A stretch of DNA of 64,000 nucleotides from an uncultured Clostridium sp. (GTDB taxonomy: Bacteria > Bacillota > Clostridia > TANB77 > CAG-508). A program made the translations under genes and the position numbers. The notes under the pieces are model-generated. The model saw only the letters and a program-made list of their open reading frames with translations, was not told where the DNA came from and searched no databases. Below, in pieces: positions 2,448 to 52,149 of the stretch (within the stretch, counting starts at the first letter, position 1; each line of letters begins with the position of its first letter). The DNA is taken from positions 31,492-95,491 of the forward strand of contig USFW01000003.1 in NCBI GenBank assembly GCA_900553985.1. The letters run 5' to 3'.

Positions 2448-2477
2448 AAGGAGGATGAGTTACAATATTGTTTTCAT

Positions 2478-3134: not shown

Positions 3135-3146
3135 ATGGAGGCACTA

Positions 3147-4408: not shown

Positions 4409-4438
4409 GTAGGAAAATATGAGAATGGAGTGAATAAA

Positions 4439-5089
4439 ATGCCAAAAAAGAAACCTGAATTAAATAGGAGAGAAAAGTCAATATTAAATTTTATTGAAAA
4501 ACAAATAATGACACAAGGTTATCCACCATCAGTAAGAGAAATTGGAAAAGCTGTTGGACTAAGCTCAACAGCAACAGTTCATGGATATTTAGCAAAATTA
4601 GAGGAAAAAGGGTATATAAAGAAAAAGGATAAAAAAGGAAGAACTTTAAGATTGTTAAAAGGTTCATCAGGAGAAGAGAAAGTAATGTCTAGTAAAGACT
4701 TTTATACTCAAAAAGAATTAGTAGAAGTTCCAATTATAGGAAGAATAACAGCAGGAGAGCCAATTTTGGCAGTAGAAAATGTAACAGATACATTTCCAAT
4801 TCCAATAGACTTTGTTGGAAATTCAGAAAGTTTTATGCTAACTGTTAGAGGAGAAAGCATGATAGAAGCTGGTATTTTAGACGGTGATTATATTTTGGTA
4901 AAAAAACAAAATTCTGCACAAAATGGAGAGATTGTTGTTGCTCTAATAGGAGATGAAGCGACGGTAAAGACATTTTATAAAGAAAAAGACCATATTAGAT
5001 TACAACCAGAAAATTCTACAATGGACCCTATTATAGTACCAAACTGTGAAATTCTTGGAAAAGTTGCAGGTGTATTTAGAAAGATGTAA
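4439..5089 (+). CDS. lexA: LexA repressor
   Basis: Winged-HTH N-terminus ([34 protein letters not shown]), an AG cleavage region, and an S24 peptidase C-terminus (GESM...K). The ATG at 4439 is 8 nt after GGAG. Confidence 0.95.
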
Positions 5090-27069: not shown

Positions 27070-27597
27070 ATGAAAATAAAAATAATAGGTAAGGAACTAA
27101 AGATAACAGAAGCAATGAACGATTATGTAGAAAAAAAATTAGACAGAATCGATAAATATTTTGAAGATGCAGAAGCAGATGTTACTTTAAAAACAGAAAA
27201 AAATGAACAAATAGCAGAAATATGTGTTTTAGCAAACGGAGAAAAATATAGAGCCGTAACTGAAGACAAAGACTTATATGCATCAATAGATAAAGATATT
27301 GATATATTAGAAGGTCAAATTAGAAAAATGAAAACTAAAAAAGAAAAAATGATGAGAGAAGGAAGTTTAAAAACAATGGAAGTTTCAGATGATAAAATAG
27401 CTGAGATATCTAATGAAATAATAAAAACTTCTTACTATGAAATAAAACCAATAACACCAGAAGATGCAGTTCTTGAATTAAAAGAAAAACCAACACATAA
27501 TTTTTTAACATTCATAAATGTTGAAACAGGAAAAGTTAATGTTATACATAAATTAAAAGATGGAAAAAATTATGGTTTAGTAGAACCAGAAGCATAA
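27070..27597 (+). CDS. hpf: ribosome hibernation promoting factor (long HPF)
   Basis: YfiA/HPF N-terminal domain (ITEAMNDYVEKKLDRIDKYF) plus the C-terminal dimerisation domain of long HPFs. Confidence 0.9.
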   Translation: MKIKIIGKELKITEAMNDYVEKKLDRIDKYFEDAEADVTLKTEKNEQIAEICVLANGEKYRAVTEDKDLYASIDKDIDILEGQIRKMKTKKEKMMREGSLKTMEVSDDKIAEISNEIIKTSYYEIKPITPEDAVLELKEKPTHNFLTFINVETGKVNVIHKLKDGKNYGLVEPEA

Positions 27598-27995: not shown

Positions 27996-28384
27996 GTTAT
28001 TTCACCTCCGTATATATACTTTTTATGAAAAAACTATTGTCTTTTCTAATACTATCATTTGCAATTTTGAAAAAAATAAACAGGAAATTTTTACTAAAAA
28101 TAAAATGATTATAATTTGTATGTAATTTGTAAATTTAATAAAAAAATTAATTATAGTTTACAATAGGAATGTAAAAAATATACTATCAATATACTTGACA
28201 TTTATTTATATATAAATATATAATGAATAATCAGTGATTTAACTAAAGAAAAAACTAAATAATCAACAATAAAAGTAAATTACTAATGCTGATTTGTAAA
28301 TGGCATAATAATGTTATTTATATAATTAAAAATATAAATTATTTATGTTTGTTTGCAACTTTAAGAAAGGAATGGAAAACAAAA

Positions 28385-29266
28385 ATGTATAAATTAGTAG
28401 CAATAGATTTAGATGGTACAATGTTAAACAGTTATGGAGTTGTAACTGAAAAAACAAGAAATACAATAAAAAAGTGTATTGAAAGAGGAACAGATGTAAT
28501 AATTGCCTCAGGGAGACCAATAGATTCAATAAAAACAATAGCAAAAGAAATAGGAAGTGAAAAATATTTTATAGCTGGAAATGGTGCAATGATATATGAT
28601 ATACAAAAAGATGAAGTGATATATGAAAAATATATGAGTAAAGAAAAGGTATTAGAAATAATTAAAATATGTGAAGAAAATAGCATTTCATATAATGTAT
28701 ATACAGATAAAACAATTTTAGCTACAAGTTTAAAATATAATGTTTTATATTATCATAAAGAGAACTTGAAAAAAGAAGATAATAAGAAAACTAATATTAG
28801 TATTGTTGAAAATATGTACGAATATGTAAAAAATATGAAAGAAGAAAAATTTTTAAAGGTGACAGTTTGTGATGAAAGTAAGACAATATTTAATTCTATC
28901 ATAAGAAAATTAAGACAAATAGAAGAGATTGAAGTTTTAGATGTATTACATATGTCAAGAAAAATAATAAAGCAAGGAACAGAAGATATTCCAATAGAAT
29001 ATCATTATACAGAAATATCTCGTGCAAATGTTGATAAATGGAATGCACTAGAATTTTTAATGGAAAAAACAAACTTGAAGAGAGAAGAGATAATAGCAAT
29101 TGGAGATAATATAAATGATAAAAAAATGATAGAAAATTCTGGATTAGGAATAGTTATGAAAGGTAGTACACCAGTGGTTTGTGAGATTGCAGATTATATA
29201 ACGGAAAGTAATAATGATGATGGTGTAGCAATAGCATTAGAAAAATTTTGCTTAGAGAATAATTAA
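28385..29266 (+). CDS. Cof-type HAD-IIB phosphatase
   Basis: Motif I AIDLDGTML, motif IV GDNINDKKM, and a cap domain typical of the Cof subfamily. The internal ATG at 28385 gives the usual N-terminus. Confidence 0.85.
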   Translation: MYKLVAIDLDGTMLNSYGVVTEKTRNTIKKCIERGTDVIIASGRPIDSIKTIAKEIGSEKYFIAGNGAMIYDIQKDEVIYEKYMSKEKVLEIIKICEENSISYNVYTDKTILATSLKYNVLYYHKENLKKEDNKKTNISIVENMYEYVKNMKEEKFLKVTVCDESKTIFNSIIRKLRQIEEIEVLDVLHMSRKIIKQGTEDIPIEYHYTEISRANVDKWNALEFLMEKTNLKREEIIAIGDNINDKKMIENSGLGIVMKGSTPVVCEIADYITESNNDDGVAIALEKFCLENN

Positions 29267-29488
29267 AATGAAAATTTAATGAAAAATTAGCAATAAAATC
29301 GACTTAAAAATTAAAAAAACATATGAAATTACTAGCACATCTGCAATGTTACAAAAATATTACAGATGTGTTATTTTTATGTTACAGAGAAGGAATAAGA
29401 TTGATTTTTATTTACAGTTGATGTAAAATAAAATAAAGTTTATTTGTAAAAAAATATATAAAAATAAATATAAAGGGAGGAATTTGTA

Positions 29489-30454
29489 ATGGCAACAAAT
29501 CCAATGCAAAGAAAAGCAAGAAATTCATTTTTATTAGGAATGTTAGTTATGCTTATAATAACAGGAATAATAATAGCAATTTTATTTATACAATTAACAA
29601 ATATTAAAAAAGCAGAAAAACAAGAAAAATTAGCAATGGTAACAGTTTATACATTAAATAGAGATGTTGATGCAGGAGAAGAAGTAAGTGAAACAGATTT
29701 TACAATTACATCAGTAAATAAGGATATAGCTCCTAAAGATTATTTAACACCAACAGATTTAAAAGAAAAAAATATAGCAAAAATAGCTATGACAGCAGGA
29801 ACAGTTTTATCAAAAGAGATGATTTATGAAGATGAATCAGAACAAGGAAATGATGTAAGAAAACAAGAATATAACATGTTTGTATTACCAACAGACTTAC
29901 AAAATGGTGATTACATAGATATAAGATTAATGTTGCCTTCAGGAACAGATTATATTGTAGCATCTAAAAAGAGAGTTGAAATACCACAAATTGCACAGGT
30001 AGATGCAACTGATACAATTTCAGTTAACTTATCAGAAGAAGAAACATTATTAGTTAGTAATGCAATAATAGATGCTTATAAAATAGTAGGCTCAAAATTA
30101 TATGTTACAAGATATACTGAACCAGGACTTCAAAAAGCTTCAGAACCAACATTCCCAGCTAATAAAGATGTAATGTCTTTAATAAATGCAAATCCAAATA
30201 TTGTGGAAGAGGCAAGACAAGCATTATGGGCAAGATATAATGATGGAGATGGTGTAAACCAAAGAAACAATGTTATAAATTCATCAATAACAAATGCAGG
30301 TGATCAAGCAACACAAAATCTTCAAACAAAAATGGAAGACAGTATTACGAATTCACAAACAAGAAGAAAAGAATATTTAGATTCTTTATCAGCAACAGCA
30401 CCAACTACACCAGAAGCAACAACTACAACTACTACAAATACAACATCAAAATAA
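29489..30454 (+). CDS. CpaB/RcpC-like Flp pilus assembly protein (SAF domain)
   Basis: N-terminal TM helix. SAF-like segment VTVYTLNRDVDAGEEVSETDF. Thr-rich low-complexity C-terminus. Confidence 0.65.
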   Translation: MATNPMQRKARNSFLLGMLVMLIITGIIIAILFIQLTNIKKAEKQEKLAMVTVYTLNRDVDAGEEVSETDFTITSVNKDIAPKDYLTPTDLKEKNIAKIAMTAGTVLSKEMIYEDESEQGNDVRKQEYNMFVLPTDLQNGDYIDIRLMLPSGTDYIVASKKRVEIPQIAQVDATDTISVNLSEEETLLVSNAIIDAYKIVGSKLYVTRYTEPGLQKASEPTFPANKDVMSLINANPNIVEEARQALWARYNDGDGVNQRNNVINSSITNAGDQATQNLQTKMEDSITNSQTRRKEYLDSLSATAPTTPEATTTTTTNTTSK

Positions 30455-30469
30455 AAGAAAGGAATTAAT

Positions 30470-31168
30470 ATGAAAAAGATAGGATTTATAGGAGCGTATG
30501 ATAAAACAGATTTGCTATTAAATTTAGCCAAGATATTAACAGTAATGAATAATAGGGTATTAATAATAGATTCAAGTTTGATGCAAAAAGCCAAATATGT
30601 TGTACCTGTTATAAATCCTACTGTTACATATATAACAACATTTGAAGATTTCGATGTTGCAGTTGGATTTAACAGCTTAAAACAAATAAAAGGATATTTA
30701 GGATATTCTGAAAACGAAGATCTACCATATGATATTGTTTTGGTGGATTCAGATACAGAAGAAAGCATAGAAAATTTTGAGTTAATAAATGCAGAAAAAA
30801 ATTATTTTGTAACAGCTTTTGACTTATATTCATTAAAAAAAGGACTAGAGATATTAAGTGGGCTAAGAGAACCAATGGCTTTAACAAAAATATTATTTTC
30901 AAAAGATATGACAAAAGAAGAAGATGATTATTTGAATTTTTTGTCACTAGGATATAAAGCATTGTGGAATGATTATAGAATATATTTTATATTAAATGAA
31001 GAAGATACAAATGCATTAATAGAAAATCAGAGAGTTTCAAAAATAAGATTTAAAAAAATAAGTTCACAATATAAGGATAGTTTGATATATATAGTTCAAG
31101 AAATATTAAAAGATACAAGTGAAAGTAATATTAGAAAAGTTGTTAAAATAATAGAAAGAGGAGTATAA
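30470..31168 (+). CDS. ParA/MinD-fold protein with degenerate P-loop (TadZ/CpaE-like)
   Basis: MKKIGFIGAYDKTD occupies the Walker A position but has no GKT/S. A later VLVDSD Walker B-like strand is present. Confidence 0.5.
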   Translation: MKKIGFIGAYDKTDLLLNLAKILTVMNNRVLIIDSSLMQKAKYVVPVINPTVTYITTFEDFDVAVGFNSLKQIKGYLGYSENEDLPYDIVLVDSDTEESIENFELINAEKNYFVTAFDLYSLKKGLEILSGLREPMALTKILFSKDMTKEEDDYLNFLSLGYKALWNDYRIYFILNEEDTNALIENQRVSKIRFKKISSQYKDSLIYIVQEILKDTSESNIRKVVKIIERGV

Positions 31169-31169
31169 T

Positions 31170-32018
31170 ATGTCAATTGTAACATTTTACAATAATAATA
31201 TAGAACAGACTGGAAAAACAATGTCAATAACAGCAATTGCTACATTTATGTCAATTGAACATAATTACAGAATTCTTATAATATCTACAACAAATAAAGA
31301 AGATAATTTAAAAAATTGTTTTTGGGAAGAAAAGAAAAAAAGAAGAAATTTAGGAATATTTGGACCAAATGCAAATCTTGAAGTACAAAATGGTGTAGAA
31401 GGGTTAACAAGAATAATTAGAAGCAATAAAATAACACCAGATATAATTACAAATTATACAAAAGTTGTGTTTAAAGATAGACTAGAAGTTTTATTAGGAA
31501 GTAATCAAGTTGAGCGTAATAGTCCAGAATTGCAAAATATAGAAAAAACATATCCAGAAATAATAAAATCAGCAAATAAATATTATGATTTAGTATTTGT
31601 AGATTTAGATGAAAATGTAGATGAAGAAACAAAAACTTCAATATTAGATATGTCAGACGTAACAGTGGTTAACTTGAGTCAAAGATTAAGAAGTATAAAT
31701 AAATTTGCTGAAACTAAAGTAAATACAAATAGATTGAAAGATAGAAAAAAATTAATTTTAATAGGAAGATATGATAAGTATTCAAAATATAATTCTAAGA
31801 ATATAACTAGATATTTAGGAGAAAAAAATCAAGTATTGACAGTACCATATAATACATTATTTATGGAAGCTAGTGAAGAAGCTGGAGTACCAGATTTATT
31901 TTTGAGATTCAGAAAAATGGCAGAGACAGAAGATGTTAATGGATTTTTTATATCAGAGATAAGAAGAGCTAGTGAAAATATAATTTATAGATTACAAGAT
32001 TTACAAATGAAATTGTAA
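31170..32018 (+). CDS. ParA/MinD-fold protein (TadZ/CpaE-like), deviant P-loop
   Basis: FYNNNIEQTGKTMS (partial Walker A) and LVFVDLDE (Walker B-like). Start is 2 nt after the upstream stop. Confidence 0.5.
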   Translation: MSIVTFYNNNIEQTGKTMSITAIATFMSIEHNYRILIISTTNKEDNLKNCFWEEKKKRRNLGIFGPNANLEVQNGVEGLTRIIRSNKITPDIITNYTKVVFKDRLEVLLGSNQVERNSPELQNIEKTYPEIIKSANKYYDLVFVDLDENVDEETKTSILDMSDVTVVNLSQRLRSINKFAETKVNTNRLKDRKKLILIGRYDKYSKYNSKNITRYLGEKNQVLTVPYNTLFMEASEEAGVPDLFLRFRKMAETEDVNGFFISEIRRASENIIYRLQDLQMKL

Positions 32019-32035
32019 AAGAAAGGAGACCTTAA

Positions 32036-33982
32036 ATGACTATAACAAATATAATATTATCTCTAATTGTATTACTAATAACAGCATTTGCAGTATATTA
32101 TTTCATTAAAAAGAAAAAAGAAGAACCAGTAGAAGAAACAATAAATGTGGATGATAAAACATATACATTGGATGCAATGAGAGATTTTGTAAAGAGAAGA
32201 TTAGATGAAATAACAAAAGTCAATTTATATGATATAGGTCTTTCAGAAGAAGAATTAAAAAGAAGAAAAAATAAAAAATATGAGCTAAAAAAAGCATTAA
32301 AAGGATGTACATATGGAGATGTTAATGATAAAAAATATGTTAAGGAATTAATATATGATTTATTAGCACAAGAATATGGAGTTGATGAAACAAATATATC
32401 TAAAGCAATACCATTTGATATTCCATCACTTCTAACTGCTAGAGACAAATTTGATATTTTAATATATGTATATAAAAAAGAATTTGGATACGAAGCTTTA
32501 ACAGAAATGATAAAAAAATATGATTTAGCTGAGTTAAAATATATAGAAGGAGAAACAAAACCTTCATATGTAATTACTGAACAAGAAATTGAAGATATAT
32601 ATGAAAAGGAAAATATAACATTAACATTTGCAGATAAATTAGCAATAGTAGTACAAAGAATTTATCAACATTATAAAGGATATAGTTCAATTGATGAAGT
32701 AAGAGATATGAATATAGATGGAGTTTCTGGAGGAGTATCAGGTCTGCCAGAAAGTTTTTTAAGTCAAGTAGCACAAACAGATGGAGATTATTTAAATCAA
32801 ATAGCAGAACATAAAGTACCAAGAGCTTGTGATAGCATATGGATATTCTTCCAAGGTAAATCTATAAGATTAGCATTCTTATCATTTGAAACAGAAGCTG
32901 AGTTAAAAAGAGTATGTCAAAATATATATAAATACAATAACCCAGGACAATTATCAGACACAAATGGATATAAAATTAATGAAATGAAAGACGGTTCTCG
33001 TGTTGTTGTAGTAAGACCAAGTTTCTCAGAAACATGGGCATTTTTTGTAAGAAAATTCGATGTTAAAAGAGCAACTTTAGAACAATTAGTAAGGGATCCA
33101 GGAAAAGAAGATGCAATACAATTGTTAAAATTTCTAGTAAAAGGAGCAAGGATTACTTCAATAACAGGAGAGCAAGGTTCGGGTAAAACAACACTATTAA
33201 TGGGAATGATAGAAAATATATATGAAACAATGAATATAAGGGTTCAAGAAACAGCATTCGAGTTACATTTAAGAAAAATATATCCAACAAGAAATATTTT
33301 AACATTCCGTGAAACAGACACAATTTCAGGACAAGAAGGTTTAGATGTTCAAAAGAAAACGGATGGTTCTGTAAATATCATTGGAGAGGTTGCAACAGAC
33401 CCTGTAGCATCTTGGATGATACAAGCAGCCCAAGTAGCATCTAAATTCACATTATTTACTCACCATGCTAAAACATTTCCAAACTTAGTAACAGCATTAA
33501 GAAACTCAATGTTAAGAACAGGAGTATTCACAGACGAAAAAACAGCAGAAGAACAAGTTGTACAAGTTTTAAATTTTGACATTCACCAAGTAAAAGATTT
33601 TAGAGGAAAAAGATATATAGAAAGAATTACAGAATGTATACCAGTAGAAGACAAAAATGAATATACATTTGACCATAGAAAAGAAAAAACATTAGAAGGA
33701 AAATTTGATAAGTTTTTTGATAATGCAACACATTTTTTTACAAAAACAACAGATAAACAATTATATACATATAGAAACATAATGGAATATATTGATGGAG
33801 AATATGTAATAACAAATCCAATAACAGATGAAAATATAAAAGAAATGAGAAATAATATGGATGAAACAGATGTAGAAGCATTTGATAAATTTATAGAAAA
33901 ACATTGGGCAAAAAAATCAAATGAAACAGTAAATAGTGAAGCAGAAAAACCAAAAAGAGGAAGAAAAGCAAAACAATCATAG
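32036..33982 (+). CDS. CpaF/TadA-family secretion ATPase with an N-terminal TM anchor
   Basis: Walker A GEQGSGKTTLL. Downstream ETAFEL and IIGEV...THHA boxes sit in the positions of the Asp and His boxes of VirB11/CpaF ATPases. N-terminal hydrophobic helix ILSLIVLLITAFAVYYF. Confidence 0.7.
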   Translation: MTITNIILSLIVLLITAFAVYYFIKKKKEEPVEETINVDDKTYTLDAMRDFVKRRLDEITKVNLYDIGLSEEELKRRKNKKYELKKALKGCTYGDVNDKKYVKELIYDLLAQEYGVDETNISKAIPFDIPSLLTARDKFDILIYVYKKEFGYEALTEMIKKYDLAELKYIEGETKPSYVITEQEIEDIYEKENITLTFADKLAIVVQRIYQHYKGYSSIDEVRDMNIDGVSGGVSGLPESFLSQVAQTDGDYLNQIAEHKVPRACDSIWIFFQGKSIRLAFLSFETEAELKRVCQNIYKYNNPGQLSDTNGYKINEMKDGSRVVVVRPSFSETWAFFVRKFDVKRATLEQLVRDPGKEDAIQLLKFLVKGARITSITGEQGSGKTTLLMGMIENIYETMNIRVQETAFELHLRKIYPTRNILTFRETDTISGQEGLDVQKKTDGSVNIIGEVATDPVASWMIQAAQVASKFTLFTHHAKTFPNLVTALRNSMLRTGVFTDEKTAEEQVVQVLNFDIHQVKDFRGKRYIERITECIPVEDKNEYTFDHRKEKTLEGKFDKFFDNATHFFTKTTDKQLYTYRNIMEYIDGEYVITNPITDENIKEMRNNMDETDVEAFDKFIEKHWAKKSNETVNSEAEKPKRGRKAKQS

Positions 33983-34018
33983 TATCATGATAAAGCTAAA
34001 AGGAGGTGCGATATAAGA

Positions 34019-36097
34019 GTGTCTAATCAAATAATATTTTACATAATGGGTGGAGCAGCAGGACTATTAGTAATAATGATAATTGCATATTTTATATTAG
34101 CAAAGAGAATGCAAAAATCAGAATATAGACAGATAAAAAGACTACAGCAAGGCACAAAAGAAAAATCATTTTCTTCAGAAGTTCTTTTTCAAAAACTATA
34201 TATAATGTATGTAAGAGTTCCATTCTTAAAAAGATATATATTAAAATTGCGTAGAAGATTAGAGATTATAAATATTGATGATGAGTATAGCACAAGAAGA
34301 GATTCAGCAAAAATTTTAACTAAAGCACTAGCCTTAATTATACCAATAGTTATTGTGACAATTTTACTAACAAAAAGTAATTATCTAATAATGACAATAT
34401 TACTTATATTTGAATTATTCATGATAGATACATTAATAGATGGATCAGTAGATAAAAAAGATTCAATGCTATTAAAAGAACAATTAGATTTCTTTTCTGA
34501 AATAAGACATGCATATCACGAATTTAATATGGTAGAAGAAGCAATATATCAAGTATCACAAGATGACGAAATGGATGTATCAAGGCAAGGAGAAAAAATC
34601 TATGAAATATTAATTTCTGATGATCCAGAAATGGAATTAGAAAAATATTATGATATAGCACCAAATATATTCTTAAAAGAATTTGCGGGAGTATCATATT
34701 TAACAAAAGAATTTGGTGATAGAAAAGTAGATGGTGCATCATTGTACTTAAAAAATATAAATAACATATCAAAAGAAATGCAATTGGAAATTTTAAAAAG
34801 GGATAAGCTAAACTATGTATTTCAAAGCTTATCACTAATTGCAATAACACCAATATTATTACTAGAGCCATTAAAAAACTGGTCAATATCAAACTTCTCA
34901 TTTACAGCAAGTTGGTATAATGGAAAACCAGGAATGATAGTTCAAATACTAATATTAATCTTAACATTTATATCATATACCTTGGTAAGAAGATTAAAAG
35001 ATAATGGTTCAACAGGAATAAATACAAAAAATACAGAAAATCCATGGCAAGCAAAATTATATAAAAACAAAATAATAAAAAAAATTGTTGACTTATTTAT
35101 CCCAAAAGAAGGAACAAAAGAATACAGAAAAGTACAACAACAATTAAAAGATGCCGCATCACATTTAAAGATGGAATGGTTATATATAAATAGAATAACT
35201 TTGGCAATAACCACTTGTGTTGTGTCAATAATAGTATTTACATATTTGCATAAATTAGCTATAGACTATGTATACACAGAACCAACTACAAGTTATAATC
35301 TGATGGGAGAACTAGACGAAAAAGATAAAGCAAAAGCTATGGAAATAACAGAACAAGACAATATAATATTAAATATGTTTAGAGGAAAGTTGGATACAAC
35401 AGAAAAGCAAATTCAAATAGAAGTAAAAAGACAAAAGTTTTATGAAGATGCAGAAGATAAAGAGATAGAAGTAGCAGTAGAAAGAATTTATAAAAAATTA
35501 AAAATTGTAAATAGTGAATATATAAAATGGTTTGAAATATTATTATCTTTTGTATTTGCAATAATAGGATATATGGCACCAATGGCATTACTTATGTTCC
35601 AAATAAAAATGAGACAAATAGAAATGGAAGATGAGGTAATGCAGTTTCAAACAATAATTTTAATGTTAATGCAAATTGAAAGGGTAAATGTTGAAATTAT
35701 ATTGGAATGGCTAGAAAGGTATGCAAATATCTTTAAAGAACCAATATCAAAATGTGTAAATAACTATGAATCAGGAGCATGGGAAGCTTTAGAGGAAATG
35801 AAAGAAGAAGTAAGTTATATGCCACTAGTAAGAATCATAGAAAGCTTGCAAGCAGCAGTAGAAAAAATTCCTATCAAAGATGCCTTTGATGAATTAGACT
35901 CTGAAAGAGACTACTATCAAGAAAAAAGAAAAGAATCGAATGATAGATTAATAAAAAGAAAAGGTATGATAGGAAAAGCAATAGGATTCGCACCGATGGT
36001 ATGTATGTTTGTTGGATATTTAATTGTACCATTAGTATTCATAGGATTAACAAGTATGTCAGATACAATGGCAGGAATGATGTCACAAACGATGTAA
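34019..36097 (+). CDS. polytopic membrane protein, TadB/TadC (GspF-like) platform candidate
   Basis: 692 aa with multiple TM helices. The C-terminal part (ESGAWEALEEMKEEVSYMPLVRIIESLQAAVEKIPIKDAFDELD) resembles the T2SS-F repeat. Confidence 0.55.
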   Translation: MSNQIIFYIMGGAAGLLVIMIIAYFILAKRMQKSEYRQIKRLQQGTKEKSFSSEVLFQKLYIMYVRVPFLKRYILKLRRRLEIINIDDEYSTRRDSAKILTKALALIIPIVIVTILLTKSNYLIMTILLIFELFMIDTLIDGSVDKKDSMLLKEQLDFFSEIRHAYHEFNMVEEAIYQVSQDDEMDVSRQGEKIYEILISDDPEMELEKYYDIAPNIFLKEFAGVSYLTKEFGDRKVDGASLYLKNINNISKEMQLEILKRDKLNYVFQSLSLIAITPILLLEPLKNWSISNFSFTASWYNGKPGMIVQILILILTFISYTLVRRLKDNGSTGINTKNTENPWQAKLYKNKIIKKIVDLFIPKEGTKEYRKVQQQLKDAASHLKMEWLYINRITLAITTCVVSIIVFTYLHKLAIDYVYTEPTTSYNLMGELDEKDKAKAMEITEQDNIILNMFRGKLDTTEKQIQIEVKRQKFYEDAEDKEIEVAVERIYKKLKIVNSEYIKWFEILLSFVFAIIGYMAPMALLMFQIKMRQIEMEDEVMQFQTIILMLMQIERVNVEIILEWLERYANIFKEPISKCVNNYESGAWEALEEMKEEVSYMPLVRIIESLQAAVEKIPIKDAFDELDSERDYYQEKRKESNDRLIKRKGMIGKAIGFAPMVCMFVGYLIVPLVFIGLTSMSDTMAGMMSQTM

Positions 36098-36112
36098 AGG
36101 AGATGAAGTTTA

Positions 36113-36826
36113 ATGGAGAATGCATCAAAAGCATTAATAATAGCAGGTAGTGTGTTATTAGCACTAATAGTAATTGGTGCATTCATGTTAATGTTATCGA
36201 ATCTTACTGATTATAAGGATAAAAATGATACAAGAGTACAACAACAACAAATAGTCGAATTTAATAATCAATTTTCAACATATGATAGAATAGGTCTAAG
36301 AGGAACTGATATGCTATCTTTAATGAATAGAATAATAGACTATAATGTAAGAAAAACAGCAGAAGAAGTAGGTTTTCAAAAGATGAAAATGACTATAAAG
36401 GGAATTGATAAAAATATACTACAAGCAGTGAGATATGAGCCATCAGGACCAAACTTATTAATAAAGAAAAATGCTTATACGCAAGAAGATTTATCAGAAA
36501 TAGTAACAAAACCTCAAAATTTAGAAAATAAATATCAGAAAAAATATATTACACAATTAGTAAGTAACGTTTCATCTTTTATGGATATTTATAGCAGTAG
36601 TTTATCAATAAATCAAAAGATACAAGAAATAAATGATAAAAAATGGTTGCCCAAAAGTATAACAACATATGGGAGCTTAGATAGTGTGAAAAATGACATT
36701 TTAATATATTATGAGTATTCACAATTTAAGAGAACATACTTTGATTCTACAGGAGAGACTAAATATGATAAAAATACAGGAAGAATTACGGAAATGAATT
36801 TTAATTGTGTAGGAATAGGAGAGTAA
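36113..36826 (+). CDS. pilin-like protein, MENASKAL class (237 aa)
   Basis: N-terminus MENASKALIIAGSVLLALIVIGAFMLMLS. One of four paralogous N-termini in the locus. Confidence 0.6.
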   Translation: MENASKALIIAGSVLLALIVIGAFMLMLSNLTDYKDKNDTRVQQQQIVEFNNQFSTYDRIGLRGTDMLSLMNRIIDYNVRKTAEEVGFQKMKMTIKGIDKNILQAVRYEPSGPNLLIKKNAYTQEDLSEIVTKPQNLENKYQKKYITQLVSNVSSFMDIYSSSLSINQKIQEINDKKWLPKSITTYGSLDSVKNDILIYYEYSQFKRTYFDSTGETKYDKNTGRITEMNFNCVGIGE

Positions 36827-36827
36827 T

Positions 36828-37316
36828 ATGGAGAATGCATCAAAAGCATTATTAATGGCAGCAGGCGTACTAATTGGGGTATTGATATTATCTTTAGCAG
36901 TATTTTTATTTGTGAATTTTGGAGGAACATCAGCTAGGATACATGATACAGTACAAAAAAACCAATTAGCTAAATTTAATACACAATTCACTAATTATGA
37001 AACAAAAGAAAGTGTAACAATTTATGATATTGTTTCAGTAGCTAATTTAGCAACTGAAAATAATAGAGAAAATCAATTACAAAAGAAAACAGCATCAACT
37101 AATGGAATAGATAATTATATAACTGTAAAATTAAAAGGAAGATGTATAGAAGGTGGAGAAAACACAGATATAAAGCAACTAGAGGATGATTATAATAAAA
37201 AAATAATAGAAGATATCAATAGACAAAATAATGGAGAATTAAAAAAATATAAAGCAAAGACATATGTAAGTACAGAAACGGGCAGAGTTTATTTAATAGA
37301 ATTTAGTGAAATTTAA
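36828..37316 (+). CDS. pilin-like protein, MENASKAL class (162 aa)
   Basis: N-terminus MENASKALLMAAGVLIGVLILSLAVFLFV. Confidence 0.6.
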   Translation: MENASKALLMAAGVLIGVLILSLAVFLFVNFGGTSARIHDTVQKNQLAKFNTQFTNYETKESVTIYDIVSVANLATENNRENQLQKKTASTNGIDNYITVKLKGRCIEGGENTDIKQLEDDYNKKIIEDINRQNNGELKKYKAKTYVSTETGRVYLIEFSEI

Positions 37317-37357
37317 TAAAAAAATTTTATATATGGAATATATTAGACAGGTGAAAA

Positions 37358-37789
37358 ATGAAGAAATTTATAATTTTTTTAGTAGTTATTTTAATGATAA
37401 TTGCAACAATATCATATCTTTATTTGAATTATAAAGCTAATTACAACATAGCCCAAAAAGAAAATTTTCAATTTGAAAGTTACTATAATCAAGAAATATT
37501 TGGACCAGATGTTGCAACTGTAATAAATAAAGCAATTGATAAAAATTCAAACAACAATATAAAGAAAGATAATAAAGGCAATTACATAGAAGATAATACT
37601 AATTCGATAAAAATAGATATAAAATTTATAGATGATGATAAAATACACAACATGGAAGAAATCTTTAACAAAGGTATAGGCACATTTATGCAATATTATA
37701 GCCAGATAAAATTCAAATGCACAAAAATTGATTATCATAAATCTAGTAAAAAAGTTAAATATATGTTATTTGAACAAATAACAAAATAA
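37358..37789 (+). CDS. small N-terminally anchored protein of the pilus locus
   Basis: MKKFIIFLVVILMIIATISYLYL anchor followed by a polar domain. Confidence 0.5.
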   Translation: MKKFIIFLVVILMIIATISYLYLNYKANYNIAQKENFQFESYYNQEIFGPDVATVINKAIDKNSNNNIKKDNKGNYIEDNTNSIKIDIKFIDDDKIHNMEEIFNKGIGTFMQYYSQIKFKCTKIDYHKSSKKVKYMLFEQITK

Positions 37790-37859
37790 TAAAGTTATTT
37801 AAGTTACTAAAGAAATTTAGTATATATAGCAAAAGTAAAATTTAAAGGAGGAATTTTTT

Positions 37860-38282
37860 ATGGAAAATGCATCAAAAGCATTAATTATTGCAGGAGCAAT
37901 ACTATTAGCAATTTTAATTATAACATTAGGAATTGTAATTTACAATCAAGCACAAGGAGTAGTAAATAATAGTTCGATGAATCAAGTTGAAGTAACACAA
38001 TTTAATACACAATTTACACAATATGAAGGTAAACAAAGAGGTTCAGTTGTAAAATCTCTATTCCAAACAGTATTAGCAAATAATGTATCACAAGATAGTG
38101 AGGATAGACAAGTTAAAATTGAATGTACAGTAACAGGAAATTTAGAAAAAAATGCTACATCATTACCTGCAAATATGTCAAAAATAGCAACAGGTGCATC
38201 ATATGAAATAAGTATTAAATATGGTACAGGTAAAGGTAATGCTGGATTGGTTGATGTAATTACAGTTGCACCAGCAAATTAA
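37860..38282 (+). CDS. pilin-like protein, MENASKAL class (140 aa); major subunit candidate
   Basis: N-terminus MENASKALIIAGAILLAILIITLGIVIY. Strongest SD in the locus (AAAGGAGGA), preceded by a 70-nt spacer, and the smallest globular domain. Confidence 0.6.
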   Translation: MENASKALIIAGAILLAILIITLGIVIYNQAQGVVNNSSMNQVEVTQFNTQFTQYEGKQRGSVVKSLFQTVLANNVSQDSEDRQVKIECTVTGNLEKNATSLPANMSKIATGASYEISIKYGTGKGNAGLVDVITVAPAN

Positions 38283-38308
38283 AAAGTACAAAGAAAGGAT
38301 GATATATT

Positions 38309-38950
38309 ATGGAAAATGCAGCAGACGCATTAAAAATGGCAGCAGCCGTATTAGCTTTTGTTCTAGCATTAGGAATTAGTATGTCATCTTTTTCCGAAGT
38401 TAGAGAAGTTTCTGAAATAATTTTAAATTATAAAGACAAAGAATATAATTACAATTATATTCCAGAAAATGGAGATACTACTAGAAAAGTAAGTGTAGAG
38501 ACAATAGTTCAAGCAATTTATAGAGCGTACAATGAAAATTATAAAATTTATTTTTATGAAAATGGTAATGAATCAGACCCATTAACTATATTTCAAAAAG
38601 GAACAAATCAAAAAGAAGAAATTAATTATATTGATTTAAGAGGACAAGCACTAGTAAGTGTTGAAAAGAGAAATCAGTTTATAGGTTGCATTTTATATGG
38701 AAGTTCATATAGAGATCCTAATGGAAAATCATTTAATGATATAAAAAATGAATTTAAAGAACTAGGAATTATATTGCAAGATCAAGGATTATATGATAAA
38801 ATATTAAGTAGTGGAGGAGCTGAAGAAAAATTTGGAGTGTATTATGAAGATGATGAGATAGTAGATAACTCAAATCCAGATGATTCTGAATCAAACGTAC
38901 CACAAGCAAACAGAGTAAAGAAAAGGGTTATTACATATATTTTGCAATAA
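38309..38950 (+). CDS. pilin-like protein, MENAADAL variant (213 aa)
   Basis: N-terminus MENAADALKMAAAVLAFVLALGISM. Confidence 0.55.
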   Translation: MENAADALKMAAAVLAFVLALGISMSSFSEVREVSEIILNYKDKEYNYNYIPENGDTTRKVSVETIVQAIYRAYNENYKIYFYENGNESDPLTIFQKGTNQKEEINYIDLRGQALVSVEKRNQFIGCILYGSSYRDPNGKSFNDIKNEFKELGIILQDQGLYDKILSSGGAEEKFGVYYEDDEIVDNSNPDDSESNVPQANRVKKRVITYILQ

Positions 38951-38985
38951 TAAAAAGGAGAATTTATTATTAGAAGGAGGAAGTT

Positions 38986-39519
38986 ATGGGAGATTCATTG
39001 ATAACAATAATTGCAATAATTTTAGCAGCAGTTTTAATGTTTGTATTTCCATTAATGACTATGTCGGATAGAACAGATGATGTTACACAACTAGCAGTAA
39101 AAACAGCTACAACTGATTTTGTAGACACAGTAAGAACAACAGGAAAATTAACATCAGATAATTACAGTAAATTCGTAGAAAGTATTAATTCAACAGGAAA
39201 TACATATGATGTAGAAATGGAAGTAAAAGTTCTAGATGAAAATCCAGGAAAGAAAACATCACAAACAGCAACAGAAAAAATAGGTGAAAATGTATATTAT
39301 TCAATGTATACATCACAAATTCTAGAAGCATTAGGAAAAAATAATAATAATGCAGTATTAGCACTTAAAGAAGGTGATTATTTCATAGCAAGTGTAAAAA
39401 ACACTAATACAACATTATCACAACAACTAAAGAACTTTTTCTATACAGTAACAGGAAACGACACTTATACTATTGCAGCATCACATGGAGGAATAGTATC
39501 AACTAATGGAGTAAAATAA
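38986..39519 (+). CDS. N-terminally anchored pseudopilin-like protein (TadE-like position)
   Basis: MGDSLITIIAIILAAVLMFVFPLMTM hydrophobic N-terminus followed by a beta-rich domain. Confidence 0.5.
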   Translation: MGDSLITIIAIILAAVLMFVFPLMTMSDRTDDVTQLAVKTATTDFVDTVRTTGKLTSDNYSKFVESINSTGNTYDVEMEVKVLDENPGKKTSQTATEKIGENVYYSMYTSQILEALGKNNNNAVLALKEGDYFIASVKNTNTTLSQQLKNFFYTVTGNDTYTIAASHGGIVSTNGVK

Positions 39520-39539
39520 TGCTAGAAAAATAGAATTTT

Positions 39540-39571
39540 AAGGGGCGTCATATAAAATTACGTCCTTTTTT
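39540..39571 (+). terminator. internal terminator in the pilus locus
   Basis: AAGGGGCGT / ACGTCCTTT stem (with G-U pairs) and a T-run. Confidence 0.5.
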
Positions 39572-39604
39572 CAAATTTTAAATATAAACGAAGGAAATAA
39601 ATTT

Positions 39605-41224
39605 ATGAAAATACAATATTTAGCAGTAATTTTTATAATCATAATATTACCAATATCACTAATATTATCAGCCTATACTCAAAATCATATATCAACATTA
39701 AATTTACAAGAACTATATGATTCAAAACTTGATACAGCAACATACGATGCGGTAAAAGCTTTTCAATTAAATACTATAAATAATAGTACATCAGACATAC
39801 AAAATTCAAAAATTAGAGATATAGAAGCAGCAGTAAATACTTTTTTCAATTCAATAGCATCTAATTTTAATATGGTAGGATACAATAGTGATGTATTAAA
39901 TAAATATGTACCAGCATTAGTATTTACAATGTATGATGGTATATATATATATACATCATACACAAACGATTTAAGTGATGTTAAACAAGGCGAAAACTCA
40001 ACATATAAAGATGGAGAAAACTTAGCTGGATTAAAACCATATATTTTTTATAGTTGTAGGTATAAAACAGGTGCAACTGATGTAGTAATAACATATTCCT
40101 TAGACAATTACATACAAATTGATGGAAAAGTTAACAGTGAATATATTCATAAAGATGGATATTTATATAATCCAAGTGACATTCAAATAAATGGAAACAA
40201 TGTAACATATAGAGGAATACCAATAAACCAAGAAGAAGCATTAAAAGAAATATTACCAGATGGAAATGAATATACATATTTAAAATTAAATGGAGTAAAA
40301 TACTATAAAGATATAAATTCAGATAAATGGTTTTCTATATTAAATGGACAAAAAAAGCTACAAGGAAAATTTTCATCAAAATATGAAACTACAAATGACT
40401 TAGCAATAAAATTCTTTAAAGAAGCCAAAGAATTTAGCGATTGGTTCTATAATCAATCAGGACTTAGTGATTTAAAAGCTTCAAATGCAGTAGATGAAAA
40501 GGGACAACCACTAAAAAAATTAGTGGATGAGAGAACTTCAGTAGTGTATGAATTCGCATCAAATCAAAGAATTTTTGATAATAGTGGACATATAGAAGAT
40601 CCAGCTTCACAATTTAATAACCACAGATTGGCAGTAATAAGATATACAATAGAAAAAAATCTATCAATAGCAATAGCAAACTACAATAACTTTACACAAG
40701 GAGCATCGATAAATTTTCAAATGCCAAATTTAACAGAAGAAGAATGGGCACAAATAATGAATAATATGTCAATGATAAGCTTTTTGGAAGGTTTAAGTAT
40801 TGGTGGTAAAGTTTATAATGGATATTCAATTATAAATAATAACAAAAATCAAGAAGTTGTATCAGAAAATTCAATATATATTGTAGGAAATGATAATAAT
40901 TATCATATGGTAACAGATAAAGATTTAGTAACTATGATTACACCAGAAGTAGGTTATTTAAACATAGACTTTGAGAGAAAAAGTATAATAGGAATAGAAG
41001 ATACTACAAAATATTATTATCCAAGAAGAGAATTGGGATGCTATGGAAGCATAGTTGCTCATACTAATTTAGATGTAGAATCTGATAGTATATATGAATA
41101 TTTAGGAAAATCTACTAATAATAAAGTAGCAAGTGTATATTATACGGCTTTGGCAAGAGAAAGATATAGTAGCTATAAGGCAAGTAGGACATATGATACT
41201 TATACAGAGCAATTTAAGGAATAA
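39605..41224 (+). CDS. large N-terminally anchored protein (539 aa), pilus-associated or tip candidate
   Basis: MKIQYLAVIFIIIILPISLILSAY anchor followed by about 510 aa of extracytoplasmic sequence. Last gene of the cluster. Confidence 0.5.
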   Translation: MKIQYLAVIFIIIILPISLILSAYTQNHISTLNLQELYDSKLDTATYDAVKAFQLNTINNSTSDIQNSKIRDIEAAVNTFFNSIASNFNMVGYNSDVLNKYVPALVFTMYDGIYIYTSYTNDLSDVKQGENSTYKDGENLAGLKPYIFYSCRYKTGATDVVITYSLDNYIQIDGKVNSEYIHKDGYLYNPSDIQINGNNVTYRGIPINQEEALKEILPDGNEYTYLKLNGVKYYKDINSDKWFSILNGQKKLQGKFSSKYETTNDLAIKFFKEAKEFSDWFYNQSGLSDLKASNAVDEKGQPLKKLVDERTSVVYEFASNQRIFDNSGHIEDPASQFNNHRLAVIRYTIEKNLSIAIANYNNFTQGASINFQMPNLTEEEWAQIMNNMSMISFLEGLSIGGKVYNGYSIINNNKNQEVVSENSIYIVGNDNNYHMVTDKDLVTMITPEVGYLNIDFERKSIIGIEDTTKYYYPRRELGCYGSIVAHTNLDVESDSIYEYLGKSTNNKVASVYYTALARERYSSYKASRTYDTYTEQFKE

Positions 41225-41360: not shown

Positions 41361-42591
41361 ATGCAAAAGAAAACAAAATCTTTAATATTATTGACTTTTT
41401 TAATTATAATATACATGTATACATTAGTGATAACATCAATACCAGGTAAAATGGTAGTATTTGAGGGAGAAGAAATAAACATAAAAACATTATTAGGACT
41501 GAATTTAATGGAAAAAAACGATAGCATGGAAGTATCATCAAATGTAAATAATCAGAAAATAAATGAAGTAGGAGTAAAAAAGCTTACATTAAATTTGTTT
41601 GAAAAATTACCATTAAAATCCATAAATGTATCAGTATTGCCAAGAACTAAAGTAATACCGGTTGGAAACATTGCAGGAGTAAAACTATATACAAGTGGAG
41701 TTTTGGTGGTAGGAATGTCTGAAATAGAAGGGAAAGATAATAAAATATATAAGCCATATGAAAATACAGGAATAAAAGAAGGAGATACAATAACTAAAAT
41801 AAATAATAAATATATATCTTCAACTGATGATCTAATAGATAATGTAAATAAATCAAATGGAGATACAATTGAAGTAACATATATTCAAAATGAACAAACA
41901 AAAGAATGTAGTATAACCCCAGTAAAAACTGATGAAGATGAATATAAAATTGGACTTTGGGTAAGAGATAGTGCAGCAGGAGTGGGAACAGTAACATTTT
42001 ATGAACCTGATACAAAAACATTTGGAGCACTAGGACATGGGATAGCAGATATAGATACAGGTGAGTTATTAAATATAGCATCAGGAGAGTTTGTAACGAC
42101 TAGAGTTTTAAATATAACAAAAGGAGAAAAAGGAAATCCAGGGAAAATTCAGGGAACAATTGAAAATCAACAAACAATAGGAGAAATATCAAAAAATACA
42201 GGTTTTGGGATATATGGCAAAGTAGATAATATATCAAGTTTAGATATAGATGCATCCAAAGAAATGGAAGTAGCATTAAGAGATGAAATAAAATTAGGAA
42301 AGGCAAAGATACTATGTAACTTAGATAATAAAAATGTACAAGAGTATGAAATAGAAATAAAGAAAATATATAAGGAAAATAATTATAATAACAAAAGCAT
42401 GGAAATAGAAATAACAGATGAAAGGCTAATAAACAAAACAGGAGGAATAATACAAGGAATGAGCCGGATCACCAATAATTCAAAATGGAAAATTTGTAGG
42501 TGCAGTAACACATGTATTAGTTAATAATCCAAAAGAAGGATATGCTGTGTTTGGAGATTTAATGCTAAAACAAACAAAAGAAATAAAATGA
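41361..42591 (+). pseudogene. spoIVB: SpoIVB peptidase (S55) interrupted by a 1-nt frameshift at the catalytic-Ser motif
   Basis: PDZ plus S55 domains. The frame breaks after GGIIQGMS (extra C at 42464/42465 in AGCCGGA). The +1 frame continues [34 protein letters not shown] to the TGA at 42589-42591. This matches the conserved GMSGSPI...GAVTHV region. Confidence 0.85.
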
Positions 42592-51394: not shown

Positions 51395-51814
51395 CTATTT
51401 TTTAAATCCATCACTAATATCATAATAATAATCTAAGCATCTAGCAATATAATCAGAATTTACATTAAAATAATTTGCTATTTCAGTTGCAGTAGATATA
51501 CCATTATTAATTAATTGTTTAACTTCTTGATATGGAAAAAATTCGTTCCAAGCTGCAATATCAGCAGACTGCTCCATATCATTTATTGTTTCATAAGGGT
51601 CATTAGATTTATAATATGAATGAGCTAAATAATGACCAAATTCTTGAATTATAATTGTATTTTCATGTGTAGAATTTTTAATTTGCTCTTTATCAACAAC
51701 TATTGCAGTAATATTTTCATAATGTACAATTGCACCAGGTGTCAAAAAAAGTTTTTTATTTATATAGTGTATATTTTCTTGTTGTAATCTTTTGTATAAA
51801 TCATCAGTATTCAT
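51395..51814 (-). CDS. ImmA/IrrE-family metallopeptidase-like protein with a variant motif (QEFGH)
   Basis: Small protein directly downstream of an XRE repressor. IIIQEFGHYLAH sits where the HExxH motif is expected. Confidence 0.6.
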   Translation of the reverse strand: MNTDDLYKRLQQENIHYINKKLFLTPGAIVHYENITAIVVDKEQIKNSTHENTIIIQEFGHYLAHSYYKSNDPYETINDMEQSADIAAWNEFFPYQEVKQLINNGISTATEIANYFNVNSDYIARCLDYYYDISDGFKK

Positions 51815-51816
51815 TT

Positions 51817-52149
51817 TTAATTTTTATTTTGTTTTTTTAATAAATCCTCCATAATTTCTCGTAAAATTTCCTGATTTTCTTTATTTAATCCCTTTATGCC
51901 ATTTGCAAAAGCAATTTCTATATCATCAAGTTCTAAACTGTTATTTTTAACATCACTTTTACAGAGAATATAATCTATACTACAACCAAATATTTCAGAT
52001 AATCTTATTAAAATTTCTATACTAGGTTTGCGTGATTCATTTTCGTACATTGCAATAGTGCTTTTTGCACCATTAATTTTATCAGCAAGTTCTTGTTGGG
52101 TATATCCAAATTGTTTACGCAATTCTTTTATCCTATTCATTGCAATCAC
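51817..52149 (-). CDS. XRE-family HTH repressor (ImmR-like)
   Basis: MNRIKELRKQFGYTQQELADKINGAKSTIAMYENESRKPSIEIL is a canonical HTH_3 domain. Confidence 0.85.
   Translation of the reverse strand: MIAMNRIKELRKQFGYTQQELADKINGAKSTIAMYENESRKPSIEILIRLSEIFGCSIDYILCKSDVKNNSLELDDIEIAFANGIKGLNKENQEILREIMEDLLKKQNKN

Follow-up and report, generated by a model that had tools for sequence, protein, structure and literature searches.

Twelve adjacent genes of an uncultured Clostridium sp. raise the question of whether they encode a type IV filament and, if so, whether that filament is of a kind not described before. The genes lie in a stretch of 64,000 nucleotides (the window; contig USFW01000003.1 of GenBank assembly GCA_900553985.1, positions 31,492 to 95,491, forward strand) from a bacterium of the order TANB77, family CAG-508. 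A first-pass annotation, made from the letters alone, had seen in them a Tad-type filament locus with atypical parts that could represent an uncharacterised branch in spore-formers. The analysis reported here gives a probability of about 0.75 that the locus is a chromosomal Tad-type (type IVc-like) pilus gene cluster characterising TANB77. The parts of that annotation that concerned a CpaF-like ATPase, a platform protein resembling TadB fused to TadC, pilins that are not of Flp type and the lack of a prepilin peptidase nearby were upheld; its suggestions of an uncharacterised branch and of a link to spore formation were not. The locus is not new: it is the gene cluster characteristic of the order TANB77 that was described in 2024 (Kim et al., Nat Commun, PMC11680825).

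Organisation of the gene cluster

The cluster spans positions 29489-41224 of the window and comprises 12 open reading frames (ORFs), all on the plus strand. They are listed below with their lengths in amino acids (aa), predicted transmembrane (TM) helices and, where useful, the number of the corresponding protein of Kim et al.

29489..30454, plus strand: g1, SAF/CpaB(RcpC)-like, membrane-anchored protein, 321 aa, one N-terminal TM helix; protein 927
30470..31168, plus strand: g2, degenerate ParA/MinD-like (TadZ-like) protein, 232 aa; protein 928
31170..32018, plus strand: g3, ParA/MinD-fold protein, 282 aa, homologous to a protein in the TadZ/CpaE position; protein 929
32036..33982, plus strand: g4, CpaF/TadA-family secretion ATPase, 648 aa; protein 930
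34019..36097, plus strand: g5, putative fused, divergent TadB+TadC-like platform, 692 aa, about 8 TM helices; protein 931
36113..36826, plus strand: g6, pilin-like protein, 237 aa, MENASKAL start, N-terminal TM helix
36828..37316, plus strand: g7, pilin-like protein, 162 aa, MENASKAL start, N-terminal TM helix
37358..37789, plus strand: g8, small protein, 143 aa, MKK-hydrophobic N-terminus; protein 934, labelled "signal peptide" by Kim et al.
37860..38282, plus strand: g9, best candidate for the major subunit, 140 aa, MENASKAL start
38309..38950, plus strand: g10, pilin-like protein, 213 aa, MENA-A-D/E-A-L start, acidic residue at -2
38986..39519, plus strand: g11, conserved minor-pilin-like protein, 177 aa, N-terminal TM helix; protein 937
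39605..41224, plus strand: g12, large terminal pilin-like protein, 539 aa, N-terminal TM helix; positional equivalent of "pilin 938"

All 12 ORFs matched the gene set named in the first-pass annotation (a SAF/CpaB protein, two ParA/MinD proteins, an ATPase, a 692-aa polytopic protein and seven proteins with N-terminal helices), and a hydrophobic helix was found at the N-terminus of 7/7 proteins downstream of g5. The tight co-directional packing was also confirmed; the gaps between the genes measure 1-85 nt, and two of them are exactly 1 nt (31168/31170 and 36826/36828). A Shine-Dalgarno-like GGAGG/GGAG motif precedes each of the 12 ORFs. A hairpin followed by a T-run at 29338-29380, 3' of the upstream HAD-hydrolase gene, suggests that the cluster has its own promoter. 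A consensus scan for promoters and terminators was uninformative at the 25% G+C of the window, as it found 114 sites where 121 were expected. Base composition is uniform along the window, the cluster being like its surroundings.

Correspondence with the published TANB77 cluster

Kim et al. reported a pilus cluster of 10-14 genes that occurs once per genome in 122/129 TANB77 species, and described genes 927-938 of HRGM_Genome_2725 (CAG-245 sp000435175), with assignments made by eggNOG, InterPro, DeepTMHMM and AlphaFold/Foldseek (PMC11680825). These genes encode CpaB, TadZ, CpaE, a TadA/CpaF ATPase with one TM helix, a 693-aa protein with eight TM helices whose halves are like TadC and TadB, six pilin-like proteins and the 621-aa protein 938, the N-terminal 25% of which is TadE/PilV-like in structure. 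Recombinant 938 activated dendritic cells via TLR4 and improved anti-PD-1 responses in mice; as the protein was produced in E. coli and its effect runs through TLR4, carried-over LPS is an obvious possible confounder. That paper does not show a filament; the word "prepilin" has 0 occurrences in it, and neither a peptidase nor an N-terminal motif is discussed.

Gene for gene, the order, the TM predictions and the assignments are the same in the two clusters. The protein lengths are 358, 231, 280, 640, 693, 165, 170, 143, 146, 237, 178 and 621 aa in the published cluster and 321, 232, 282, 648, 692, 237, 162, 143, 140, 213, 177 and 539 aa here; the present cluster comes from another TANB77 species, and its pilin-like proteins differ from the published ones in length and sequence. 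Candidatus Merdicola, which carries a syntenic locus with an ATPase 83% identical to g4, has been placed in the TANB77 family CAG-508. Since order and assignments match and Merdicola belongs to CAG-508, the finding is already in the literature with the same interpretation, and the label of an uncharacterised branch had to be withdrawn. The first-pass annotation had said that its proposal would fall if the proteins belonged to an already described Firmicute Tad locus sharing the pilin family, and PMC11680825 provides such a locus; the pilus itself has never been seen.

The ATPase and platform protein resemble Tad components

The ATPase g4 matched Pfam T2SSE at 28.4 bits (cut-off 24.9), and its only matches in the PDB at E≤0.01 were to CpaF (1.5e-10, residues 269-539). 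The two align at the Walker A motif, the acidic-box Glu, the Walker B GE and the His-box; the Walker A sequence GEQGSGKTT, reported in the first-pass annotation, is present at residues 378-386. Among the NCBIfam models the best was the TadA-family model TIGR03819 (9e-9, compared to 1e-4 for ComGA and 0.03 for GspE), with g4 falling under every equivalog cut-off by a wide margin. By sequence, g4 is a divergent member of the TadA/CpaF family. It carries approximately 240 extra residues and a TM helix at its N-terminus and ends in a basic tail; such a helix was found in 9/14 members of the g4 family compared to 0/3 canonical CpaF proteins.

The platform protein g5 has approximately 7-8 predicted membrane helices and had no match in Pfam or among PDB sequences, even when searched as a profile of 48 members. 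It was therefore compared by hhalign with a template of six TadB/TadC proteins from the canonical Tad loci of R. etli p42e, C. botulinum pCLJ and Alkaliphilus pB6464, three of which (3/6) match Pfam T2SSF on their own. Residues 131-260 of the 48-member family matched the T2SSF-domain region of the template with a probability of 94.3% (E = 1e-7), and residues 480-692 matched the same region with a probability of 55% (E = 1.2e-4). On these two matches g5 is best read as a fused, very divergent TadB+TadC, a reading that agrees with the Foldseek matches of the TANB77 platform protein to TadC and TadB reported by Kim et al. (PMC11680825). No internal repeat was detected in g5 by hhalign (probabilities of 5% and 0.5%), and each half resembles TadB/TadC more than it resembles the other. 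The g5 family comprises 1153 clusters at 50% identity, its full-length members being nearly all approximately 640-700 aa, so the earlier description of a single very large platform polypeptide was borne out.

Of the remaining machinery proteins, g3 gave the firmest alignment to a canonical Tad locus. Its family profile matched a ParA-family ATPase (3ea0, E = 1.6e-4) and MinD (0.02) in the PDB, and hhalign aligned it over 191 columns (probability 97%, E = 1.1e-10) with a 262-aa protein whose gene immediately precedes that of the ATPase in the Tad locus of Alkaliphilus pB6464; this TadZ-position protein has a CbiA match above the cut-off. Protein g1 scored 21.2 bits against Pfam SAF, with a gathering cut-off of 21, and matched the CpaB model TIGR03177 at E = 1.4e-8 in its N-terminal third only, far under the curated cut-off. 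A plasmid homologue of g1, annotated "SAF domain-containing protein", matched SAF at 5e-7; hhalign of g1 with the CpaB-position proteins of canonical loci was weak (probability 12-36%). Matches of g2 were marginal, with CbiA at E = 0.065 in Pfam and, for the family profile against the PDB, MinD at E = 0.019 and then Soj/ParA, in the P-loop region only; hhalign gave no match between g2 and the canonical Tad-locus proteins that were collected. That g2 is designated a TadZ-like ParA protein owes most to where its gene lies and to the structural match with TadZ reported by Kim et al. Single-sequence searches of the PDB with g1, g2 and g3 found no match.

Conservation of the locus in TANB77

Species-representative genomes were scanned by ATPase alignment, which identified at least 407 relatives. 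The best 80 were examined, giving 76 loci outside this species. All of these best 80 were TANB77-like and came from gut or rumen metagenome-assembled genomes (MAGs) labelled uncultured Clostridia, Clostridium sp. or Bacillota, including Clostridium sp. CAG:389/575/780 and Candidatus Merdicola. Gene order was kept in 76/76 of the species-level loci, as were the flanks wherever the contig reached them: the HAD hydrolase upstream, and spoIVB and murC downstream. With such synteny the arrangement is not one of chance. Near-identical copies of the ATPase were also found in many human-gut assemblies ("Clostridia bacterium" MAGs).

Across species the most conserved protein of the locus was the ATPase g4, with a median identity of 84% (minimum 79%), followed by a median of 71% for the platform g5. 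Pilin-like proteins had medians of 35-45% (g6 35%, g7 43%); g11, at 62%, was the second most conserved of the seven downstream proteins. Medians for neighbouring genes were 78% for HPF (27070-27597), 68% for the HAD hydrolase (28286-29266) and 64% for SpoIVB. That the ATPase is more conserved than its neighbours points to an unusually strong constraint for the motor of an accessory surface structure. Judged from these identities, a constrained motor with fast-evolving subunits would fit a surface-exposed filament.

Pilin-like subunits with a short conserved N-terminus

Four of the proteins downstream of g5 (g6, g7, g9 and g10) are paralogues that start with MENAS(K)AL or MENAA(D/E)AL, and g6, g7 and g9 share the motif F-N-x-Q-F-[ST]-x-Y. 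The g9 gene follows a 70-nt gap and has the best ribosome-binding motif, a consensus-like AAAGGAGG. Its family contains 7020 proteins, without a name or Pfam domain. Among 38 members that are 54-84% identical overall, pairwise identity fell from 98% at residues 1-7 to 91% at residues 8-30 and 41% at residues 81-140. In this alignment a hypervariable head follows a conserved N-terminal helix, a gradient such as type IV pilins would be expected to show. The AlphaFold2 model of g9 (predicted local distance difference test, pLDDT, 86.8) has a helix at residues 2-35, a break, and a small alpha/beta head.

In the 76 related loci, 284 ORFs start with ME....A[LIVMF]; those that match one of the four paralogues best have Ala, or rarely Gly, at position 7. 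More distant members start with MSNAQKA/L, MSTNASKA/L, MGENARKA/L or MESPVVKA/I and, in C. beijerinckii, MGENGRKG/LF (the slash marks the putative cleavage site); the residue equivalent to position 7 is mostly Ala, with Gly in two and Lys in one, in a polar N-terminus of 6-8 residues. The archaeal rule [KR][GA]/[LIFQMVED][ILMVTAS] fits the MENASKA/L pattern too, and seven residues is the length of type IVa leaders. According to Imam et al. (2011, PMC3244431), PilD cuts behind a Gly or Ala that precedes a hydrophobic stretch. A short polar segment with a small residue at its end, just ahead of the hydrophobic part, is the class III pattern; the subunits are accordingly read as non-Flp pilins, and MENASKA is probably a very short class-III-type leader that would be cut after Ala/Gly 7. 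To say that no pilin signal can be recognised would be too strong, given the near-invariant 7-residue N-terminus that ends in Ala or Gly before a hydrophobic helix.

The absence of a canonical Flp (G/XXXXEY) pilin was confirmed. No Flp-type ORF (approximately 50-80 aa, with a leader ending in Gly and a mature Glu5-Tyr6) was found in the locus, where the subunits measure 140-237 aa and have no E/Y at +5/+6; Firmicute Flp genes fetched for contrast read RKG/SSE.

The three other downstream proteins have counterparts in related modules found on plasmids and in metagenomes, which are described below. A small g8-like protein with an N-terminal hydrophobic helix also follows the first pilin in plasmid modules, and g11-like homologues were recognisable in the same position in every plasmid or metagenome module examined. 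Proteins of 311-597 aa related to g12 come after the g11-like genes in plasmid modules, the two frames usually overlapping or abutting. Profiles of g11 and g12 gave no significant match to TadE/TadG of R. etli or to the small proteins of canonical Firmicute loci.

ATPase, platform and pilin-like subunits also build pseudopili in other type IV filament systems. Several pilin paralogues together with three more N-terminal-helix proteins resemble a minor-pseudopilin set, and no filament has been seen, as would suit a short Com-like or type II secretion-like pseudopilus or piston that moves DNA or proteins across the thick wall rather than a long adhesive pilus. This reading was considered unlikely: the ATPase, the platform and g3 are closest to Tad parts, the ATPase scoring better against the TadA-family model than against ComGA or GspE (E-values given above), and the fast-diverging C-terminal heads of g9, at 41% identity, are easier to reconcile with a surface fibre than with a buried piston. 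Tad pili, moreover, typically have a CpaB-like collar.

Comparison with known Tad systems

The locus shares with Tad/Flp systems (Aggregatibacter tad, Caulobacter cpa and R. etli p42e cpa) a CpaF/TadA ATPase, T2SSF-type modules, a SAF/CpaB-like protein and ParA/MinD-like TadZ/CpaE proteins, and in both cases there is one ATPase gene only. It differs from them in that TadB and TadC appear fused in one 692-aa protein missed by Pfam T2SSF, the ATPase carries the N-terminal TM helix and about 240 extra residues, and the subunits are of 140-240 aa with a predicted folded head, compared to an Flp of approximately 60 aa, and lack G/XXXXEY. The locus has no TadV gene, and no secretin, which a monoderm would not be expected to have.

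The "no Flp_2" loci of C. kluyveri, C. cellulolyticum, C. bolteae and D. hafniense are likewise clostridial and tad-like, with tadA, tadC, tadZ and rcpC homologues distant from other tad genes, and no protein with an apparent prepilin signal was reported in them (PMC3244431). They were, however, reported with tadV and a recognisable tadC, neither of which was detected here by standard searches. A different, more canonical Firmicute Tad locus is found on C. botulinum pCLJ and Alkaliphilus pB6464, with a 468-489-aa ATPase, separate proteins of TadB/TadC size and Flp-like genes of 57-76 aa that read RKG/SSE or KRGG/LS; most of the pCLJ genes are annotated as hypothetical.

Evidence against a Tad-type pilus, and the lack of a nearby prepilin peptidase

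Several results weigh against the interpretation of the locus as a Tad-type pilus cluster. In Pfam and NCBIfam searches 9/12 cluster proteins were sub-threshold or had no match, and the assignment of g2 is marginal. The TadB/TadC template alignment held only six sequences, and the match of the second half of g5 to it was moderate. Foldseek searches of the PDB with the AlphaFold2 models of g5 (pLDDT 85.9) and g9 returned no match. The subunits lack an Flp motif and, counted from the putative cleavage site, a Glu at +5. TANB77 is an uncultured order in which no filament has been observed. Of the structural and profile comparisons proposed in the first-pass annotation, hhalign thus gave matches for g5 and g3 and Foldseek none for g5 and g9; for these models, the Foldseek results neither support nor exclude pilin or T2SSF folds.

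To these points is added the lack of a prepilin peptidase nearby. As the first-pass annotation had stated, no A24 (TadV/PilD) peptidase was found among the polytopic ORFs of the 64-kb window, which are ABC transporters, P-type ATPases and a Bax1-I protein, the other large ORFs of the window being housekeeping genes. None was found in the 10 kb upstream of the window, which hold CRISPR-Cas and small ORFs. Since a prepilin peptidase can be encoded elsewhere in the genome, its absence from the locus alone is weak evidence. A peptidase hidden in g5 was also considered. The protein has one invariant Asp only (D234, in a cytoplasmic E-[FY]-G-D motif), compared to the two-Asp site of A24 enzymes, and is for this reason unlikely to hide a peptidase.

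The neighbouring spoIVB gene and sporulation

The gene immediately downstream of the cluster is spoIVB, as first reported (Peptidase_S55 match, 2.4e-64), and this adjacency is kept in those TANB77 loci that reach far enough; a small acid-soluble spore protein (SASP) gene lies upstream of the cluster. Such neighbours might suggest an apparatus associated with sporulation, such as a spore appendage or a channel between mother cell and forespore. In this species, however, spoIVB (41361-42590) is disrupted by a 1-nt insertion at approximately 42464-42466, ATGAGC-C-GGATCACCA, inside the catalytic GMSGSP motif, with the remainder of the S55 domain running on in the next frame. The insertion was identical in four other assemblies from different samples (five independent assemblies in all); in the nearest species the gene is intact (409 aa).

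A frameshifted spoIVB beside a cluster in which all 12 genes are intact argues against a sporulation link. Furthermore, the plasmid and metagenome homologues of the cluster have no spoIVB or other sporulation neighbours, and no cluster protein matched spoIIIA-type or spore-appendage families in Pfam or NCBIfam. A role in sporulation was accordingly regarded as extremely improbable, and the connection with spore formation drawn in the first-pass annotation was not sustained. Shortened spoIVB ORFs (145-350 aa) were seen in several other TANB77 loci and may hint at sporulation decay in this reduced-genome order.

Relatives on plasmids and mobile elements

The platform protein was found by tblastn on 35 large plasmids, at 28-39% identity to g5, in Paenibacillus, Clostridium, Lysinibacillus, Butyrivibrio, Thermobacillus, Alkalihalophilus, Cytobacillus, Sporosarcina and Cohnella; no homologue was found in phage genomes. 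Plasmid ATPases were 36-59% identical to g4 over more than 80% of its length, compared to a match to the core only (28% over 42% of the length) for the canonical CpaF of Rhizobium. Plasmids on which modules were located include T. composti pTHECO01, L. sphaericus pBsph, P. polymyxa pPPM1a, A. pseudofirmus pBpOF4-01, C. botulinum type E pFI1111E1, C. argentinense pRSJ17_1 and pART37. Type E botulinum-neurotoxin plasmids are among the carriers, as is pBsph, the mosquitocidal plasmid of L. sphaericus. Plasmids of Bacillus thuringiensis did not occur among the matches, and the "tip" conjugation locus of pXO16 was dropped as a candidate relative.

The plasmid modules have the same order as the TANB77 cluster: a SAF protein, two ParA-like proteins, a 583-628-aa ATPase, a 666-696-aa platform, a pilin-like protein of approximately 140-160 aa, and g11-like and g12-like proteins. 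They differ from it in having one pilin paralogue only, the short N-terminus of which ends in A, G or K before [LI] (x-A/[LI] in most), and they continue with giant SLH-domain and DUF5704 proteins or with a cell-wall hydrolase, often with GGDEF/HD genes. In the existing annotation their proteins are "hypothetical", "SAF domain-containing" or "ATPase, T2SS/T4P/T4SS family", with platform and pilin all hypothetical. Among the contigs that carry distant members in the same gene order, one places the module beside ParA/ParB and a giant SNF2 helicase, and another beside an NlpC/P60 hydrolase and a topoisomerase; the module of pTHECO01 adjoins a type IV coupling protein and a relaxase-family gene. 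The TANB77 cluster thus has relatives on Firmicute mobile elements and is not exclusive to TANB77. The exclusivity claimed by Kim et al. applied at ≥50% similarity among gut genomes (PMC11680825), and the plasmid relatives qualify that claim.

These full-module homologues, and the position of some of them beside the transfer, partition or hydrolase and topoisomerase genes just named, raise the alternative that in the cluster a mating or aggregation pilus from conjugative megaplasmids or integrative and conjugative elements (ICEs) of Firmicutes has been domesticated, and that this pilus would in TANB77 still serve cell-cell contact for DNA exchange and not adhesion to a host or substrate. Plasmids of the pBsph type are conjugative (PMC13239906), and the "pilus assembly ATPase" of pBsph, encoded beside VirB4/VirD4/VirB6, has been named as a possible transfer gene (PMC4363355). 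The separate VirB4/VirD4/VirB6 can, however, themselves explain the transfer of pBsph (PMC4363355), and no experiment ties the module to conjugation. In TANB77 the cluster is vertically inherited across the order and lies in a fixed housekeeping neighbourhood (hpf, SASP, HAD hydrolase ... spoIVB, murC) without transfer genes, its base composition being like that of its surroundings. This origin and function were judged decidedly improbable.

A broader proposal, which we regard as doubtful, is that a distinct and as yet unnamed clade of type IV filament machines comprises both the TANB77 cluster and the megaplasmid modules, the clade being defined by a fused TadBC platform, a membrane-anchored CpaF-like ATPase, 140-240-aa pilins and a leader of 6-8 residues that ends mostly in Ala, with no Glu5. 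In such a clade the subunits might be assembled without A24 cleavage or via a non-canonical enzyme, and on plasmids the structure might act as a Gram-positive mating or aggregation pilus.

Proposed assembly of the filament

The gene content, the homology of the ATPase, the platform and g3, the conservation pattern of the pilins, the synteny and the identity with the published cluster have been shown above. For the Tad-type pilus, which we consider the best account of the locus, we infer filament formation, subunit roles and processing as follows. The CpaF-like ATPase (g4), a hexamer anchored in the membrane through its N-terminal helix, would drive the fused TadB/TadC-like platform (g5), which in turn would extract the pilin-like subunits from the membrane, with g9 as the major subunit and g6, g7 and g10 as variants. 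MENASKA would probably be removed after Ala/Gly 7 by a prepilin peptidase encoded elsewhere, and the subunits would polymerise via their near-invariant N-terminal helices into a surface filament, with g8, g11 and g12 as putative minor or tip subunits. The CpaB-like g1 may form an envelope-spanning collar, and the ParA-like g2 and g3 may position or scaffold the machine, as TadZ/CpaE do.

Other features of the window

Two likely surface proteins are encoded upstream of the cluster, at 14223-15959 and 16429-18360. The first is a GH18 protein that also carries a cell-wall-associated domain, the copper-amine-oxidase N-terminal domain, and the second is a 643-aa BspA-type leucine-rich-repeat protein. 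Two neighbouring proteins encoded on the minus strand, at 51395-52149, are an HTH_3 (Xre/CI-like) repressor and an M78 (ImmA/IrrE-like) metallopeptidase. Pairs of this type control prophages or ICEs, but this one stands isolated among housekeeping genes. The regions 2076-3767 and 4430-5089, just upstream of a full-length LexA gene, hold a truncated S24-peptidase-like ORF (123 aa) and two ORFs without a Pfam match (218 and 210 aa). Cas1/Cas2 genes lie approximately 10 kb upstream of the window start on the same contig.

Significance

The cluster is a signature feature of TANB77, and 938, the counterpart of g12, is the protein reported to activate dendritic cells through TLR4. As the cluster itself has been published, what is still of interest is how the subunits are processed, the relatives outside TANB77 and the surrogates that can be cultivated. 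A conserved, possibly cleavable leader and the lack of a peptidase in the locus both bear on how the filament would be made. The plasmid modules of cultivable Lysinibacillus, Paenibacillus and Clostridium are genetically tractable surrogates in which its assembly could be tested.

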